Of a stretch of DNA of 64,000 bases, positions 12,664 through 49,398 are shown in pieces (positions within the stretch are counted from its first letter, which is position 1; each line of letters opens with the position of its first letter). The notes under the pieces are model-generated. The model was not told where the DNA came from. It ran no database searches and saw only the letters and a list, made by a program, of their open reading frames with translations. A program made the translations under genes and the position numbers. Source of the stretch: Escherichia coli (GTDB taxonomy: Bacteria; Pseudomonadota; Gammaproteobacteria; Enterobacterales; Enterobacteriaceae); the NCBI RefSeq assembly GCF_046105845.1, contig NZ_CP151004.1. One strand, given 5' to 3'.

Positions 12664-12707
<44 letters not shown>

Positions 12708-17325: not shown

Positions 17326-17390
17326 GGGTAGGCCTGATAAGACTGTATCAGGCATCATGGCCGGATGTGGCGTGAACGCCTTATCCGGCC
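17326..17390. repeat. Composite REP (BIME-like) element between convergent ypfH and ypfN
   Basis: gtaggcctgataagac...atcaggc followed by ggccggatgtggcgtgaacgccttatccggcc (canonical REP). Confidence 0.75.
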
Positions 17391-28626: not shown

Positions 28627-28657
28627 ACAAAATCCCAGATGCGGCCCTAAAAAGCGC

Positions 28658-28707
28658 ACGGACCGTCCCCTCGCCCCTCTGGGGAGAGGGTTAGGGTGAG
28701 GGGAACA
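28658..28707. repeat. GC-rich palindromic intergenic repeat (non-REP family; possibly the element known as Box C)
   Basis: acggaccGTCCCCTCGCCCCTCTGGGGAGAGGGTTAGGGTGAGGGGAACA; near-identical copy at 42051..42100; contains self-complementary CCCCTCTGGGGAGAGGG. Confidence 0.6.
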
Positions 28708-38211: not shown

Positions 38212-38317
38212 TCACCCTGTGTGACGTCGATTCGGGCGTCACGCTCTCTCCTTTTTCAGTTTACCTTCCGCGGAGGGTAGGGGGAGCTTTTACCTGAAAT
38301 ACGCCACGGAGGCGGGT

Positions 38318-40030: not shown

Positions 40031-40867
40031 ATGGCGCACGACGAACAATGGCTCACCCCACGTCTGCACATAGCGGCAACGCTGTGTAACCAGACGCCTG
40101 CCGCGACGGAATCTCCGCTGTGGCTGGGGGTGGATTTGGGCACCTGCGATGTGGTGTCGATGGTTGTTGACCGCGACGGTCAGCCGGTGGCGGTATGCCT
40201 CGACTGGGCTGATGTGGTCCGCGACGGCATCGTCTGGGATTTCTTCGGTGCGGTCACCATTGTTCGTCGCCATCTCGACACCCTCGAGCAGCAATTCGGT
40301 CGCCGTTTTAGCCATGCGGCGACCTCTTTTCCTCCAGGTACGGACCCGCGTATTTCCATCAACGTGCTGGAGTCTGCCGGGCTGGAAGTGAGCCATGTGC
40401 TGGATGAGCCAACCGCAGTCGCGGATCTGCTGCAACTGGACAACGCCGGTGTAGTGGATATCGGCGGTGGCACTACCGGCATTGCCATCGTGAAAAAGGG
40501 CAAGGTGACGTACTCGGCAGATGAAGCCACCGGCGGACATCACATCTCTCTGACTCTCGCCGGAAATCGTCGTATTTCGCTGGAAGAGGCAGAGCAGTAC
40601 AAGCGCGGTCACGGTGAAGAGATTTGGCCCGCGGTGAAACCGGTGTACGAAAAAATGGCGGACATTGTTGCCCGGCATATTGAAGGGCAGGGCATTACTG
40701 ATTTATGGCTGGCGGGCGGCTCCTGTATGCAACCGGGCGTGGCGGAACTGTTTTGCAAACAATTCCCGGCGTTACAGGTGCATCTACCGCAGCACAGTTT
40801 GTTTATGACCCCGCTGGCGATCGCCAGTAGCGGGCGAGAGAAAGCGGAGGGGATCTATGCAAAATGA
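40031..40867 (+). CDS. eutJ: Ethanolamine utilisation chaperone-like protein EutJ (actin/Hsp70-fold ATPase)
   Basis: 278 aa; phosphate-binding loops DLGTCD and DIGGGTTG. Confidence 0.93.
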   Translation: MAHDEQWLTPRLHIAATLCNQTPAATESPLWLGVDLGTCDVVSMVVDRDGQPVAVCLDWADVVRDGIVWDFFGAVTIVRRHLDTLEQQFGRRFSHAATSFPPGTDPRISINVLESAGLEVSHVLDEPTAVADLLQLDNAGVVDIGGGTTGIAIVKKGKVTYSADEATGGHHISLTLAGNRRISLEEAEQYKRGHGEEIWPAVKPVYEKMADIVARHIEGQGITDLWLAGGSCMQPGVAELFCKQFPALQVHLPQHSLFMTPLAIASSGREKAEGIYAK

Positions 40868-42044
40868 ATTGCAGACCGCGCTCTTTCAGGCGTTCGATAC
40901 CCTGAATCTGCAACGGGTAAAAACATTTAGCGTTCCACCGGTGACGCTTTGCGGTCCGGGCGCGATGAGCAGTTGCGGGCAGCAAGCGCAAACGCGTGGG
41001 CTGAAACATCTGTTCGTGATGGCAGACAGCTTTTTGCATCAGGCGGGGATGACCGCCGGGCTGACGCGTAGCCTGGCCGTTAAAGGTATCGCCATGACGC
41101 TCTGGCCATGTCTGGTGGGCGAACCGTGCATCACCGACGTGTGTGCAGCCGTGGCGCAGTTGCGTGAATCGGGTTGCGATGGGGTGATCGCGTTTGGTGG
41201 TGGCTCGGTGCTGGATGCGGCAAAAGCCGTGGCGTTGCTGGTGACGAATCCCGATAGCACGCTGGCAGAAATGTCAGAAACCAGCATTCTGCAACCGCGC
41301 CTGCCGTTGATTGCCATTCCAACGACCGCCGGAACCGGCTCTGAAACCACCAACGTAACGGTGATTATCGACGCTGTGAGCGGGCGCAAGCAGGTGTTAG
41401 CCCACGCCTCGCTGATGCCGGATGTGGCGATTCTCGACGCTGCGCTGACCGAAGGCGTGCCGTCGCATGTCACGGCGATGACTGGCATTGATGCGTTAAC
41501 CCATGCTATTGAAGCGTACAGCGCGCTGAACGCGACACCGTTTACCGACAGCCTGGCGATTGGCGCAATCGCGATGATTGGTAAATCACTGCCGAAAGCG
41601 GTGGGCTACGGTCATGACCTTGCCGCGCGCGAGAGCATGTTGCTGGCTTCATGCATGGCGGGAATGGCGTTTTCCAGTGCGGGGCTTGGGTTATGCCACG
41701 CGATGGCGCATCAGCCGGGGGCGGCGCTGCATATTCCGCACGGTCTGGCGAACGCCATGTTGCTGCCAACGGTGATGGAATTTAACCGGATGGTTTGTCG
41801 TGAACGCTTTAGTCAGATTGGTCGGGCGCTGCGAACTAAAAAATCCGACGATCGTGACGCTATTAACGCGGTAAGTGAGCTGATTGCGGAAGTCGGGATT
41901 GGTAAACGACTGGGCGATATTGGTGCGACATCTGCGCATTACGGCGCATGGGCGCAGGCCGCGCTGGAAGATATTTGTCTGCGCAGCAACCCGCGTACCG
42001 CCAGCCTGGAGCAGATTATTGGTCTGTATGCTGCGGCGCAATAA
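40857..42044 (+). CDS. eutG: Iron-containing alcohol dehydrogenase EutG
   Basis: 395 aa Fe-ADH family (GGGSVLDAAKAVA); overlaps eutJ by 11 bp. Confidence 0.94.
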   Translation: MQNELQTALFQAFDTLNLQRVKTFSVPPVTLCGPGAMSSCGQQAQTRGLKHLFVMADSFLHQAGMTAGLTRSLAVKGIAMTLWPCLVGEPCITDVCAAVAQLRESGCDGVIAFGGGSVLDAAKAVALLVTNPDSTLAEMSETSILQPRLPLIAIPTTAGTGSETTNVTVIIDAVSGRKQVLAHASLMPDVAILDAALTEGVPSHVTAMTGIDALTHAIEAYSALNATPFTDSLAIGAIAMIGKSLPKAVGYGHDLAARESMLLASCMAGMAFSSAGLGLCHAMAHQPGAALHIPHGLANAMLLPTVMEFNRMVCRERFSQIGRALRTKKSDDRDAINAVSELIAEVGIGKRLGDIGATSAHYGAWAQAALEDICLRSNPRTASLEQIIGLYAAAQ

Positions 42045-42050
42045 AAGTGT

Positions 42051-42160
42051 ACGGACAGTCCCCTCGCCCCTTTGGGGAGAGGGTTAGGGTGAGGGGAACA
42101 GAGTCGCGCCGGTGCAAACAATTACCCTCACCCCGGCCCCTCGGCTTCCAGAGTGAGGGA
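42051..42160. repeat. Composite GC-rich palindromic repeat in the eutG-eutH spacer (two inverted units)
   Basis: Unit 1 at 42051..42100 is a near-identical copy of 28658..28707; a second unit in opposite orientation (accctcacccc...gagtgaggg) at 42124..42159. Confidence 0.6.
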
Positions 42161-42213
42161 AAAACCCACTTTCAGCATTGGCAATAAATAACAACTAACA
42201 GGGAGTAAAGGTG

Positions 42214-43440
42214 ATGGGAATTAACGAAATCATCATGTACATCATGATGTTCTTTATGCTGATAGCTGCCGTAGACAGGATCCTGTCGCAGTTCGGTGGT
42301 TCTGCTCGTTTCCTCGGTAAGTTCGGTAAAAGTATCGAAGGATCAGGCGGGCAGTTTGAAGAAGGCTTTATGGCAATGGGCGCTCTGGGCCTGGCGATGG
42401 TCGGTATGACCGCGCTGGCACCGGTACTGGCTCACGTACTCGGGCCGGTAATTATCCCGGTTTACGAAATGCTCGGTGCAAACCCGTCAATGTTCGCCGG
42501 AACACTGCTGGCGTGCGATATGGGCGGGTTCTTCCTCGCCAAAGAGCTGGCGGGCGGCGACGTAGCAGCGTGGCTATACTCTGGGTTAATTCTCGGGTCG
42601 ATGATGGGGCCAACGATTGTGTTTTCCATTCCGGTGGCGCTCGGCATTATCGAACCTTCTGACCGTCGTTATCTGGCGCTCGGCGTGCTGGCGGGCATTG
42701 TGACCATTCCGATTGGCTGTATTGCTGGTGGTCTGGTTGCTATGTACTCCGGTGTGCAGATCAACGGTCAGCCGGTGGAATTCACCTTTGCGCTGATCCT
42801 GATGAACATGATCCCGGTACTTATCGTTGCGGTGCTGGTGGCGCTGGGGCTGAAATTCATCCCGGAAAAAATGATCAACGGCTTCCAGATCTTCGCCAAA
42901 TTCCTCGTTGCATTGATCACCCTCGGTCTTGCTGCCGCGGTAGTGAAATTCCTCCTTGGCTGGGAACTGATCCCCGGTCTGGATCCTATCTTTATGGCCC
43001 CTGGCGATAAACCCGGTGAAGTGATGCGCGCCATTGAAGTTATCGGTTCTATCTCCTGCGTTCTGTTAGGGGCGTACCCGATGGTACTGCTGCTGACTCG
43101 CTGGTTTGAAAAACCGCTGATGAGCGTCGGTAAAGTGCTGAATATGAACAACATCGCGGCAGCTGGCATGGTGGCAACGCTTGCCAACAATATCCCGATG
43201 TTCGGCATGATGAAGCAGATGGATACCCGCGGCAAAGTGATCAACTGTGCCTTCGCCGTTTCCGCTGCTTTCGCCCTGGGTGACCACTTAGGCTTCGCCG
43301 CTGCCAACATGAACGCCATGATTTTCCCGATGATTGTCGGCAAGTTGATCGGCGGCGTAACGGCGATTGGCGTGGCGATGATGCTGGTGCCAAAAGAAGA
43401 CGCGACCGCGGCCAAAACCGAAGTGGAGGCACAATCGTGA
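42214..43440 (+). CDS. eutH: Ethanolamine permease EutH
   Basis: 408 aa polytopic membrane protein from ATG 42214 (MGINEIIMYIMMFFML...). Confidence 0.94.
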   Translation: MGINEIIMYIMMFFMLIAAVDRILSQFGGSARFLGKFGKSIEGSGGQFEEGFMAMGALGLAMVGMTALAPVLAHVLGPVIIPVYEMLGANPSMFAGTLLACDMGGFFLAKELAGGDVAAWLYSGLILGSMMGPTIVFSIPVALGIIEPSDRRYLALGVLAGIVTIPIGCIAGGLVAMYSGVQINGQPVEFTFALILMNMIPVLIVAVLVALGLKFIPEKMINGFQIFAKFLVALITLGLAAAVVKFLLGWELIPGLDPIFMAPGDKPGEVMRAIEVIGSISCVLLGAYPMVLLLTRWFEKPLMSVGKVLNMNNIAAAGMVATLANNIPMFGMMKQMDTRGKVINCAFAVSAAFALGDHLGFAAANMNAMIFPMIVGKLIGGVTAIGVAMMLVPKEDATAAKTEVEAQS

Positions 43441-44840
43441 ACACTCGCCAGCTACTGAGCGTCGGTATCGATATCGGCACCACCACCACCCAGGTGATCT
43501 TCTCCCACCTGGAGCTGGTTAACCGTGCGGCGGTGTCGCAGGTGCCGCGCTACGAATTCATCAAACGCGAAATTAGCTGGCAAAGCCCGGTGTTCTTTAC
43601 CCCTGTCGATAAACAGGGTGGTTTAAAAGAAGCGGAACTGAAATCGCTGATTTTAGAGCAATATCAGGCTGCGGGCATTGCGCCGGAAAGCGTTGATTCT
43701 GGTGCCATCATCATCACCGGTGAAAGCGCGAAAACCCGCAACGCTCGCCCGGCGGTGATGACGCTCTCCCAGTCGCTGGGCGATTTTGTCGTCGCCAGCG
43801 CCGGGCCGCATCTCGAATCCGTGATCGCCGGTCACGGTGCCGGGGCGCAAACCCTTTCTGAACAACGGCTGTGTCGGGTCCTGAATATCGATATCGGCGG
43901 TGGCACCGCGAACTACGCCCTGTTCGATGCCGGAAAAATCAGCGGCACCGCCTGCCTCAACGTCGGCGGTCGCCTGCTGGAAACCGACAGCCAGGGGCGC
44001 GTGGTTTACGCTCATAAACCGGGGCAGATGATTGTGGATGAGTGCTTCGGTGCAGGCACTGACGCCCGTTCGCTGACCGGCGCGCAGCTGGTGCAGGTTA
44101 CCCGGCGGATGGCAGAACTGATTGTCGAAGTGATTGACGGAACGCTCTCGCCGCTCGCGCAGGCATTGATGCAAACCGGTTTGTTGCCCGCAGGTGTTAC
44201 GCCCGAAATCATTACGCTTTCTGGCGGCGTGGGCGAATGTTATCGCCACCAGCCCGCCGACCCGTTCTGTTTTGCCGATATCGGCCCGCTGCTGGCAACG
44301 GCGCTGCATGACCATCCGAGCCTGCGTGAGATGAACGTGCAGTTTCCGGCGCAAACCGTACGCGCCACGGTGATTGGCGCGGGTGCACATACCCTTTCGC
44401 TCTCTGGCAGCACAATCTGGCTGGAGGGCGTACAACTGCCGCTGCGCAATTTGCCGGTGGCGATCCCGATTGATGAAACGGATCTGGTGAGTGCCTGGCA
44501 ACAAGCGCTAATTCAACTGGATCTTTGCCCCAAAACTGACGCGTACGTGCTGGCGCTTCCCGCCTCGCTGCCTGTGCGTTACGCCGCGGTACTGACGGTC
44601 ATCAACGCGCTGGTCGATTTCGTCGCGCGTTTTCCGAATCCGCATCCCCTGCTGGTGGTGGCCGGGCAGGACTTTGGTAAAGCTCTGGGCATGTTGTTGC
44701 GCCCACAGCTACAACAACTCCCGTTGGCAGTCATTGACGAAGTGATTGTCCGCGCGGGGGACTATATCGACATTGGTACGCCTCTTTTTGGCCGATCGGT
44801 TGTGCCGGTGACGGTGAAATCACTCGCATTTCCTTCCTGA
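43437..44840 (+). CDS. eutA: Ethanolamine ammonia-lyase reactivase EutA
   Basis: 467 aa from GTG 43437 (NTRQLLSVGIDIGTTTTQVIFS...), overlapping eutH stop. Confidence 0.94.
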   Translation: MNTRQLLSVGIDIGTTTTQVIFSHLELVNRAAVSQVPRYEFIKREISWQSPVFFTPVDKQGGLKEAELKSLILEQYQAAGIAPESVDSGAIIITGESAKTRNARPAVMTLSQSLGDFVVASAGPHLESVIAGHGAGAQTLSEQRLCRVLNIDIGGGTANYALFDAGKISGTACLNVGGRLLETDSQGRVVYAHKPGQMIVDECFGAGTDARSLTGAQLVQVTRRMAELIVEVIDGTLSPLAQALMQTGLLPAGVTPEIITLSGGVGECYRHQPADPFCFADIGPLLATALHDHPSLREMNVQFPAQTVRATVIGAGAHTLSLSGSTIWLEGVQLPLRNLPVAIPIDETDLVSAWQQALIQLDLCPKTDAYVLALPASLPVRYAAVLTVINALVDFVARFPNPHPLLVVAGQDFGKALGMLLRPQLQQLPLAVIDEVIVRAGDYIDIGTPLFGRSVVPVTVKSLAFPS

Positions 44841-44851
44841 GGGAACGACTT

Positions 44852-46213
44852 ATGAAACTAAAGACCACATTGTTCGGCAATGTATATCAGTTTAAGGATG
44901 TAAAAGAGGTGCTGGCTAAAGCCAACGAACTGCGTTCGGGGGATGTGCTGGCAGGCGTTGCAGCGGCAAGTTCACAGGAGCGCGTGGCGGCAAAGCAGGT
45001 GTTGTCGGAAATGACCGTAGCGGACATCCGCAATAATCCGGTGATTGCCTATGAAGATGACTGCGTGACGCGGCTGATTCAGGACGATGTTAACGAAACG
45101 GCCTACAACCAGATTAAAAACTGGAGCATCAGCGAACTGCGTGAGTATGTGCTAAGCGATGAAACCAGCGTGGACGACATTGCCTTTACCCGCAAAGGGC
45201 TGACCTCGGAAGTGGTCGCGGCGGTAGCGAAGATTTGCTCCAACGCGGACCTGATCTACGGCGCGAAGAAAATGCCGGTGATCAAAAAGGCCAATACCAC
45301 CATCGGTATTCCGGGCACCTTCAGCGCCCGCTTGCAGCCAAACGACACCCGTGACGACGTGCAAAGTATCGCCGCGCAAATCTACGAAGGGCTTTCCTTC
45401 GGGGTGGGCGATGCGGTGATCGGCGTTAACCCGGTGACTGACGACGTGGAAAACTTAAGCCGCGTGTTGGACACCATTTACGGCGTGATCGACAAATTCA
45501 ACATCCCAACTCAGGGCTGCGTGCTGGCGCACGTCACCACCCAGATTGAAGCGATCCGTCGTGGCGCACCAGGCGGGCTGATTTTCCAGAGTATCTGCGG
45601 CAGCGAAAAAGGGCTGAAAGAATTTGGCGTGGAGCTGGCGATGCTCGACGAAGCGCGCGCAGTGGGCGCAGAGTTCAATCGTATCGCCGGGGAAAACTGC
45701 CTCTACTTCGAAACCGGACAAGGTTCGGCGCTGTCTGCTGGCGCTAACTTCGGCGCAGACCAGGTGACGATGGAAGCGCGTAACTACGGGCTGGCGCGTC
45801 ATTACGATCCGTTTATCGTCAACACCGTGGTCGGCTTTATTGGGCCGGAGTATCTCTACAACGACCGCCAGATTATCCGTGCGGGCTTAGAAGATCACTT
45901 TATGGGTAAGCTGAGCGGCATCTCTATGGGCTGTGACTGCTGCTACACCAACCACGCTGACGCTGACCAGAACCTCAACGAAAACCTCATGATCCTGCTC
46001 GCCACCGCAGGCTGCAACTACATCATGGGGATGCCGCTGGGCGATGACATCATGCTCAACTATCAGACCACCGCATTCCACGACACTGCCACTGTGCGTC
46101 AGTTACTCAACCTGCGCCCGTCACCGGAGTTTGAACGCTGGCTGGAAAGCATGGGCATTATGGCAAACGGTCGCCTGACCAAACGGGCGGGCGATCCGTC
46201 ACTGTTCTTCTGA
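44852..46213 (+). CDS. eutB: Ethanolamine ammonia-lyase large subunit EutB
   Basis: 453 aa (MKLKTTLFGNVYQFKDVKEVLAKANELRSGD...); starts 11 bp after eutA stop with no intervening insertion. Confidence 0.96.
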   Translation: MKLKTTLFGNVYQFKDVKEVLAKANELRSGDVLAGVAAASSQERVAAKQVLSEMTVADIRNNPVIAYEDDCVTRLIQDDVNETAYNQIKNWSISELREYVLSDETSVDDIAFTRKGLTSEVVAAVAKICSNADLIYGAKKMPVIKKANTTIGIPGTFSARLQPNDTRDDVQSIAAQIYEGLSFGVGDAVIGVNPVTDDVENLSRVLDTIYGVIDKFNIPTQGCVLAHVTTQIEAIRRGAPGGLIFQSICGSEKGLKEFGVELAMLDEARAVGAEFNRIAGENCLYFETGQGSALSAGANFGADQVTMEARNYGLARHYDPFIVNTVVGFIGPEYLYNDRQIIRAGLEDHFMGKLSGISMGCDCCYTNHADADQNLNENLMILLATAGCNYIMGMPLGDDIMLNYQTTAFHDTATVRQLLNLRPSPEFERWLESMGIMANGRLTKRAGDPSLFF

Positions 46214-48345: not shown

Positions 48346-49398
48346 ATGAAAAAGACCCGTACAGCCAATTTGCACCATCTTTATCATGAACCCTTACCCG
48401 AAAACCTGAAGCTCACGCCGAAGGTCGAAGTGGATAATGTTCATCAACGACAGACAACGGATGTCTATGAACATGCTTTGACGATTACCGCCTGGCAGCA
48501 GATTTACGATCAGCTGCATCCGGGCAAGTTTCATGGTGAATTTACGGAAATTCTACTCGATGATATTCAGGTTTTTCGTGAATACACCGGTCTGGCGCTG
48601 CGTCAGTCGTGCCTGGTCTGGCCGAACTCGTTCTGGTTTGGCATTCCGGCGACGCGCGGTGAGCAGGGATTTATCGGTTCGCAATGTTTGGGAAGCGCAG
48701 AAATTGCGACGCGCCCTGGCGGCACCGAGTTTGAATTAAGTACGCCGGACGATTACACGATCCTGGGCGTAGTGCTTTCTGAAGATGTCATCACCCGTCA
48801 GGCTAACTTTTTGCATAATCCGGATCGGGTATTACATATGCTGCGTAGCCAGTCGGCGCTGGAAGTGAAAGAACAGCATAAAGCCGCGCTGTGGGGCTTT
48901 GTCCAACAGGCGCTGGCGACATTTTGCGAGAACCCGGAAAATCTTCATCAGCCTGCTGTGCGTAAAGTGCTGGGGGATAATTTGCTAATGGCGATGGGGG
49001 CGATGCTGGAAGAAGCGCAGCCAATGGTGACGGCGGAAAGCATCAGTCATCAGAGTTACCGTAGATTACTTTCCCGCGCCCGTGAATATGTGCTGGAAAA
49101 TATGTCTGAGCCGGTGACGGTGCTGGACTTGTGTAATCAACTGCATGTCAGCCGCCGCACGCTACAAAACGCGTTTCACGCTATTTTAGGCATTGGCCCA
49201 AATGCGTGGCTGAAACGCATTCGCCTGAACGCCGTACGCCGCGAACTGATAAGCCCTTGGTCGCAAAGCACAACGGTAAAAGACGCAGCCATGCAGTGGG
49301 GATTCTGGCATCTGGGGCAATTCGCCACGGATTATCAGCAACTGTTTGCCGAGAAGCCGTCACTGACGCTGCATCAGCGGATGCGGGAATGGGGGTGA
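48346..49398 (+). CDS. eutR: AraC-family transcriptional activator of the eut operon, EutR
   Basis: 350 aa; C-terminal AraC-type helix-turn-helix region. Confidence 0.94.

Follow-up and report, generated by a model that had tools for sequence, protein, structure and literature searches.

A BoxC repeat pair in the eutG-eutH spacer of Escherichia coli, most likely a dispensable passenger in a slot usually held by REP/BIME elements

We analysed a 64,000-nt stretch of the Escherichia coli contig NZ_CP151004.1 (assembly GCF_046105845.1), hereafter the window, and found that the spacer between eutG and eutH is filled by a double BoxC element consisting of an intact type-A unit, a linker of about 28 nt and a degenerate type-B unit in inverted orientation. 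This pair replaces the BIME found at the same place in other strains and is carried by about 6 % of E. coli. We consider it most likely to be a dispensable passenger and not a dedicated regulator of the eut operon. To a known repeat family the finding adds a polymorphic locus that is new or, at the least, not one of those in K-12, and our literature search found no paper on a repetitive extragenic palindromic element at eutG-eutH.

Results

Layout of the spacer

The eutG-eutH spacer spans 42045-42213, as read from the sequence and from the eutH start that PGAP annotates in identical alleles, which bears out both the position and the 169-bp gap given in the initial annotation (Table 1). That annotation also regarded it as the only large spacer within the eut operon. 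It is indeed the largest, but it is not the sole sizeable one, since 106 bp separate eutM from eutN (38212-38317). The eutM-eutN gap contains a short inverted repeat, GTGACG...CGTCAC, with a T-run about 10 nt later. Further downstream (43437-46213) eutA is followed directly by eutB, and the eut operon of the window strain is therefore uninterrupted; the alignment to K-12 breaks just after eutA, at the CPZ-55 prophage site.

Alignment of the window with the other alleles of the slot shows a common left flank running to GCAATAAA (42045) and a common right flank resuming at AATAAATAAC (42183), and the allele-specific segment is therefore what lies between these two points. The first bases of its right tail match the right flank of BoxC pairs, while the end of the tail, GCATTGGC, resembles the terminal REP arm of the BIME allele, GCATCCGCC, a likeness read by eye. 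The common right flank is the same in BoxC and BIME alleles except at position 42212, where the window has T (GGTGATG) and the other alleles examined have C (GGCGATG); the T gives rise to a GTG that is in frame with the eutH ATG and one codon upstream of it. In BoxC and BIME alleles alike the variable segment is bracketed by CAATAAA, at 42039-42045 and 42182-42188, a 7-bp direct repeat that is absent from Citrobacter sequences with a short spacer (e.g. ATACACATATGACAGGGAG).

Table 1. Coordinates of the features at eutG-eutH and of the second BoxC copy in the window
Feature	Position	Strand	Basis
eutG CDS (TAA stop 42042-42044)	40857..42044	+	ORF list; eutG annotation of E. coli records that are identical or nearly so
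Allele-specific spacer segment, differing from REP/BIME alleles	42046..42182	.	Allele alignment
BoxC unit 1, type A ('A mm')	42046..42101	+	Core identity to K-12 TMECO; flank kept in K-12 pairs
Linker between BoxC units, GAACAGAGTCGCGCCGGTGCAAACAATTA	42097..42124	.	Homologous to linkers of K-12 BoxC pairs (alignment)
BoxC unit 2, degenerate type B, inverted	42125..42159	-	Fuzzy motif match; colinear with K-12 B units
Right tail of allele-specific segment, AAAAACCCACTTTCAGCATTGGC	42160..42182	.	Alignments to alleles and to K-12 pairs
Common right flank with eutH ribosome-binding site GGGAG at 42201-42205	42183..42213	+	Alignment and sequence read
eutH CDS	42214..43440	+	ATG start as PGAP annotates
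Second BoxC, single type-A unit (core 28668-28703), between convergent ypfG and tktB	28650..28707	+	93% identity to unit 1

Both units belong to the BoxC family

BoxC is the name given in the 1990s to a repeat that Holder et al. (2015) list as TMECO, with 23 copies in K-12, and equate with the PIT elements of Hoyne and Maher (PMC4666352); the HPG1 and HPG2 motifs of Kaplan et al. (2016) are BoxC as well (PMC5100583). The family shares with the window a three-block core, CCCTCNCCC / GGGAGAGGG / GGGTGAGGG, and an intergenic, dispersed and multi-copy distribution. The core begins with a C-rich block, a loop and a complementary G-rich block, followed by a second loop, TTA in type A or CCG in type B, and a second G-rich block GGGTGAGGG. 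Positions 42061-42096 match this pattern exactly. They read CCCTCGCCCC-TTT-GGGGAGAGGG-TTA-GGGTGAGGGG behind a conserved left flank AGTGTACGGACAGT, and are identical at 36 of 36 positions to K-12 TMECO nos 7, 11 and 15, all of type 'A mm', in the published list (PMC4666352). The core identity to these listed copies, together with the published equivalence of TMECO and BoxC, establishes that the name Box C, offered tentatively in the initial annotation, is correct. Conservation extends beyond the core, and the unit measures about 56 bp (range 51-59); the flanks AAGTGCnCGGnCAGT and GGGGAACA are common to the K-12 copies.

The window has exactly two occurrences of the 36-nt core pattern CCCTCGCCCCNNNGGGGAGAGGGTTAGGGTGAGGGG, for an expectation of 0.00 from 100 shuffles. 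The other occurrence belongs to the second BoxC copy, of which unit 1 (42043-42100) is a direct copy over a 58-nt match with 93 % identity, in agreement with the near-identity to an element at 28658..28707 noted initially. A third GGGTGAGGG word, at 49393 inside the eutR coding sequence, is a chance 9-mer. Both BoxC copies are intergenic by comparison with the open reading frames.

Unit 2 contains CCCTCACCCC...GAGTGAGGG and reads CCCTCACTCT-GGAA-GCCGAGGGG-CC-GGGGTGAGGG on the minus strand. It was recovered by a fuzzy motif scan as a minus-strand BoxC match with 3 edits and has a type-B-like GCC/CCG loop. The unit is degenerate (CCCCTCGGCTTCCAGAGTGAGGG, with CCCTCTCCCTGGAAGGGAGAGGG as the consensus) and no longer fits the triplex/G-quadruplex pattern. 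The two cores thus lie on opposite strands less than 50 bp apart, with 28 nt between 42096 and 42125.

Inverted pairs of a type-A and a type-B unit are known in K-12 (PMC4666352, PMC5100583), and we compared five of them (fepB-entC, ygfF-gcvP, alx-sstT, hrpB-mrcB and lldD-trmL). The composite in the window is colinear with the fepB-entC, ygfF-gcvP and alx-sstT pairs, each an A unit, a linker of about 28 nt and an inverted B unit, with a homologous linker (AACAG..GGTGC.AA..TTA) and a left flank AAGTGCnCGGnCAGT and right flank GAGAAAAC in common. Like the window pair, the K-12 pairs can be folded as one long hairpin; the window pair differs from them in lying inside an operon. K-12 has no BoxC in the eutG-eutH slot, where it carries two BIME units instead, and no TMECO between 1.35 and 3.04 Mb (PMC4666352). 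The survey of Holder et al. covers 63 TM loci in 56 strains (PMC4666352).

The spacer lacks the marks of a REP or BIME, namely an imperfect palindrome, about 35 nt long, whose arms are GCCGGATG ... CATCCGGC: neither these words nor ATCCGGC occur in 42045-42213, which upholds the earlier description of the element as not REP-like. The GCCGGATG / CATCCGGC arms are present in the alternative alleles of the slot. Elsewhere in the window, two REP-type palindromic arms (CGGATAAGGCGTTCACGCCGCATCCG) at 12677-12702 and 17362-17387 are 96 % complementary to each other and are ordinary REP elements. An Rfam 15 scan of 41500-42800 in E-value mode yielded no family match but chance hits below threshold, the best scores in the spacer being 17-19 bits against thresholds of 40-94, from eukaryotic or viral miRNA and antizyme models.

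In K-12, BoxC is counted in the literature either as 23 core motifs or as 32-33 annotated units of about 56 bp. BoxC matches are found in 4,802 of 5,426 E. coli genomes. The median number of places per genome, 6 by megablast, is an underestimate. A genome-wide count, which the initial annotation had suggested, hence shows a dispersed family with 23 to 33 copies in K-12 and not a motif of two loci only. K-12 TMECO 9 was re-located beside fabI in NC_000913.3 at its published position, 1,351,204-239. The RefSeq record of K-12 has no repeat features in the stretches that we examined, and gives the BoxC name no support from annotation there.

Alleles of the slot among E. coli

A search with the whole spacer found the BoxC pair in 303 of the 5,426 complete E. 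coli genomes, 5,392 of which have the flanking eutG and eutH sequence. A query restricted to the left junction returned the same 303 genomes, and the allele is therefore unitary, with no hybrids of BIME and BoxC. The other alleles are REP/BIME elements with one to at least five units. Their spacers grow in exact 100-bp tandem steps, measuring 116 bp with one unit, 216 bp with two (K-12 included), 316 and 516 bp, and shortened forms have spacers of 99 and 115 bp. In a systematic, rank-spread sample of 39 chromosomes drawn from the genomes with eutG-eutH flanks, the 216-bp form was the commonest (n=19), followed by 115/116 bp (n=11), the BoxC pair (n=3), 515/516 bp (n=3), 316 bp (n=2) and 99 bp (n=1). 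None of the 39 has an empty slot, which could reflect selection for a structured element at this place.

The REP/BIME elements and the BoxC pair occupy the same place just after the eutG stop, form GC-rich hairpins and vary between strains. Their palindromic units are unrelated in sequence, and BIME alleles vary in copy number while the BoxC allele is fixed in length. Part of the BoxC linker (42105-42120, AGTCGCGCCGGTGCAA) matches the long linker of the BIME in the K-12 slot (AGTGGCGCGGTGCAA) at 14 of 16 positions (p ~0.004, uncorrected), a better match than the linkers of the other K-12 BoxC pairs give. This likeness may be a relic, a trace of gene conversion or chance.

The slot in other taxa and the origin of the allele

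One genome per species was scanned for the same junction. From the 50 eutH loci recovered, 48 had a readable junction, and none of these 48 has BoxC in the slot. A spacer of 27-45 bp holding only the ribosome-binding site is found in C. braakii, C. amalonaticus S646, four unnamed Citrobacter, Pluralibacter, Yokenella, Buttiauxella, Hafnia, Entomohabitans and Morganella. REP/BIME elements fill spacers of 116-578 bp in E. whittamii and other Escherichia and of 119-163 bp in several Citrobacter; two Escherichia-labelled genomes other than E. coli have BIME-array spacers of 474 and 578 bp. The slot of Klebsiella has its own CCCGG-type palindromes (170-216 bp). Salmonella had been expected to lack the element, and this holds for the single representative recovered with its junction, S. 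enterica diarizonae, where the 67-bp spacer has one REP and no BoxC. The record DXKH01000140.1 (Citrobacter sp. MAG HRGM_Genome_0066) encodes an EutH 100 % identical to that of the window behind an E. coli-type one-BIME spacer and, by its sequence, looks like an Escherichia genome labelled Citrobacter.

On this distribution, the ancestral state would be a 27-45 bp spacer with the eutH ribosome-binding site alone, and the junction would have gained repeats repeatedly across Enterobacteriaceae. BIME would be the older occupant in Escherichia, and the BoxC pair a derived replacement swapped in as one unit, which homologous recombination of a short tract may then have carried from lineage to lineage. 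We compared three carriers in detail, the window strain, strain 702/18 and CUVET21-1780. They differ by 0-2 SNPs in the 137-bp segment, with 14-36 mismatches in 501 bp on the eutG side and 14-17 in 532 bp on the eutH side, a divergence of about 3-7 % in the flanking genes, and the nearly mismatch-free tract extends from about 41937 to 42211. The pattern in these three genomes fits one origin followed by short-tract recombination. Relative to K-12 there is no introgression peak at the junction, divergence being about 3-4 % throughout eut.

RNA folding and transcription signals

In the sense of the eut mRNA, unit 1 is predicted to form a hairpin of -23.7 kcal/mol (z -2.1) and unit 2 one of -16.4 kcal/mol (z -2.6), while for the composite the prediction is a single long hairpin of about 30 bp with -49.8 kcal/mol (z -2.65). 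The RNA of the one-BIME allele reaches -44.4 kcal/mol (z -2.71). The predicted folds are similar, and in both kinds of allele a structure of comparable stability therefore follows closely on the eutG stop, beginning 16 nt past it with BoxC and about 3 nt past it with BIME. For the full 177-nt spacer fold the z-score is only -1.15. Pairing of the C-rich block with the eutH ribosome-binding site was considered and rejected, since it appears only in a minimum free energy structure with a frequency of 0.3 % and is absent from the centroid.

The promoter scan found no promoter-like site in the spacer. There is no terminator-like site in it either, and the sole two matches of the terminator scan (41500-42700) lie inside eutH. 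The hairpin is followed by AAAAACCC, not by a U-tract, and as judged from the sequence the BoxC pair does not act as an intrinsic terminator. As summarised in PMC4666352, reporter tests of PIT elements were negative for promoter and for terminator activity and showed no influence on RNA polymerase; the tests in that summary used other, single BoxC copies and not the pair in its eut context.

The second copy in the window and other BoxC loci

The core of the second copy is identical to K-12 TMECO 9, 16, 19 and 22. At the ypfG-tktB site the place of the window's BoxC is taken by a REP in K-12 and most strains, and the BoxC allele is found in 830 of 5,426 genomes. A right-hand REP-arm repeat, CAGCATCCGGCG, is kept beside the BoxC at this site.

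Alternation between REP and BoxC was examined at four K-12 BoxC loci and is not general, as none of them (fabI-ycjD, ygfF-gcvP, zntA-tusA and pstA-pstB) shows replacement of a REP. The border segments on the ycjD side of fabI-ycjD and on the ygfF side of ygfF-gcvP are absent in roughly 40 % of complete E. coli genomes, and most genomes conserve the BoxC at zntA-tusA. At pstA-pstB, K-12 and strain MINF_2E differ by the clean presence or absence of a 92-bp segment with the BoxC, beside a REP that both alleles keep; this BoxC is absent in 17 of 29 sampled genomes. The insert has an 8-bp direct repeat, ACACGGTT, on both sides and a third copy within, and the repeat could be a target-site duplication or the mark of deletion by slippage. 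Like the eut pair, the pst copy is polymorphic between strains and lies inside a polycistronic operon; unlike it, the pst copy is a single unit and an indel next to a retained REP, without REP replacement. TMECO loci are known to be unusually variable between strains (PMC4666352), and the variability at the K-12 loci tested here agrees with this.

Discussion

The predicted structure raises the question of what the pair does to the eut mRNA, in which a long GC-rich hairpin of about -50 kcal/mol would begin 16 nt past the eutG stop. REP hairpins can stabilise upstream mRNA against 3' exonucleases; where a REP lies no further than about 15 nt from a stop codon, the output of the upstream gene can fall. 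The BoxC hairpin is similar in predicted stability to that of the REP allele, which makes a generic REP-like influence on mRNA decay possible: the hairpin could give the eutS-G part of the transcript modest protection by slowing 3'-to-5' exonucleases. The initial annotation went further and took the placement inside a polycistronic operon as a sign that the element is an mRNA stabiliser, partial terminator or processing site separating the dosage of eutSPQTDMNEJG from that of eutHABCLK. We consider it unlikely that the pair is such a selected functional RNA element, for example an RNase III substrate that uncouples the two gene sets. The hairpin of about 30 bp possible in the mRNA sense would suit this idea, as would the effects of REPs on upstream mRNA and on translation near a stop codon, the stable hairpins that every E. 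coli slot occupant examined forms just past the eutG stop, and the lack of an empty slot among the 39 sampled chromosomes. However, partial termination finds no counterpart in the spacer, with its lack of a U-tract or terminator-like site, nor in the negative PIT reporter tests as PMC4666352 summarises them. A separation of eutS-G from eutH-K dosage is likewise unsupported, if conceivable: 94 % of E. coli have a different element in the slot, and many genera that carry eut have only 27-45 nt between eutG and eutH, with several having no element at all. The B unit is degenerate, and surveys of BoxC report no positional or functional trend among the neighbouring genes (PMC4666352). Placement in an operon is also not special, since K-12 has BoxC inside operons between pstA-pstB and yihS-yihR as well (PMC5100583).

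Two further explanations place the cause at the level of DNA. The G-rich strand could form a triplex or G-quadruplex, or the inverted pair a cruciform, that stalls replication or promotes recombination and so makes the junction a rearrangement hot spot with diverse alleles. Positions 42073-42096 read as a canonical G-quadruplex, with four G3-4 tracts and 3-nt loops, and we expect the G-rich strand of unit 1 to adopt triplex or G-quadruplex structures in vitro because its sequence is identical to motifs tested as oligonucleotides (PMC4666352, PMC5100583); unit 2 is without the required blocks. Triplexes seen in vitro and a variability that is significantly raised around TMECO loci (PMC4666352), switching between G-quadruplex and hairpin in vitro (PMC5100583), the missing border segments at fabI-ycjD and ygfF-gcvP and the presence/absence polymorphism at pstA-pstB would all agree with such a role. 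But a stable triplex in vivo is unsupported in the account given in PMC4666352, and the diversity of the slot consists mostly of BIME copy number in strains without BoxC there, so the hot spot is independent of BoxC; among carriers, the BoxC allele shows almost no variation. On balance we regard a role in DNA structure as improbable, if not negligibly so. We give still less credit to the idea that BoxC is a small non-autonomous mobile element that inserts in a transposition-like manner and possibly favours REP-bearing spacers. Its discrete, conserved ends are common to unrelated loci, the 92-bp pst difference is flanked by ACACGGTT, CAATAAA flanks the variable eutG-eutH segment, and both copies in the window sit where K-12 has a REP, with REP-arm-like remnants, while the pst copy adjoins one. 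However, no transposase or mobile-element association of BoxC is known (PMC4666352), CAATAAA surrounds the BIME alleles too and is therefore not specific to BoxC insertion, the 8-bp repeat at pst would be equally expected from a slippage deletion, with its third copy inside the insert, and fabI-ycjD, ygfF-gcvP and zntA-tusA show no alternation with REP.

We thus favour the reading of the BoxC pair as a passenger. It is conceivable that BoxC does not land at random and replaces REP/BIME elements, or inserts beside them, whether through integration targeted to REPs or through gene conversion among structured repeats. This proposal starts from two REP-to-BoxC sites within 14 kb, each with a REP-arm-like remnant, from the BIME-like linker of the eut pair and from the pst copy adjoining a REP and its 8-bp repeat, and we think it very doubtful. 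If true, it would offer the first handle on how BoxC spreads since the description of the family in the 1990s, and the two REP-to-BoxC swaps in one window are a small lead in that direction.

BoxC, alias PIT and TMECO, already has a name, a literature and negative functional tests, so it would be wrong to present the element as a novel regulatory signal, and the value of the present finding is mostly that of a correct annotation. Beyond that, eutG-eutH offers a natural allelic series among related strains and genera, whose members are an empty 27-nt spacer, a single REP, one to six BIME units and the BoxC pair. This series is a ready-made system for asking whether structured repeats inside an operon alter relative gene dosage.
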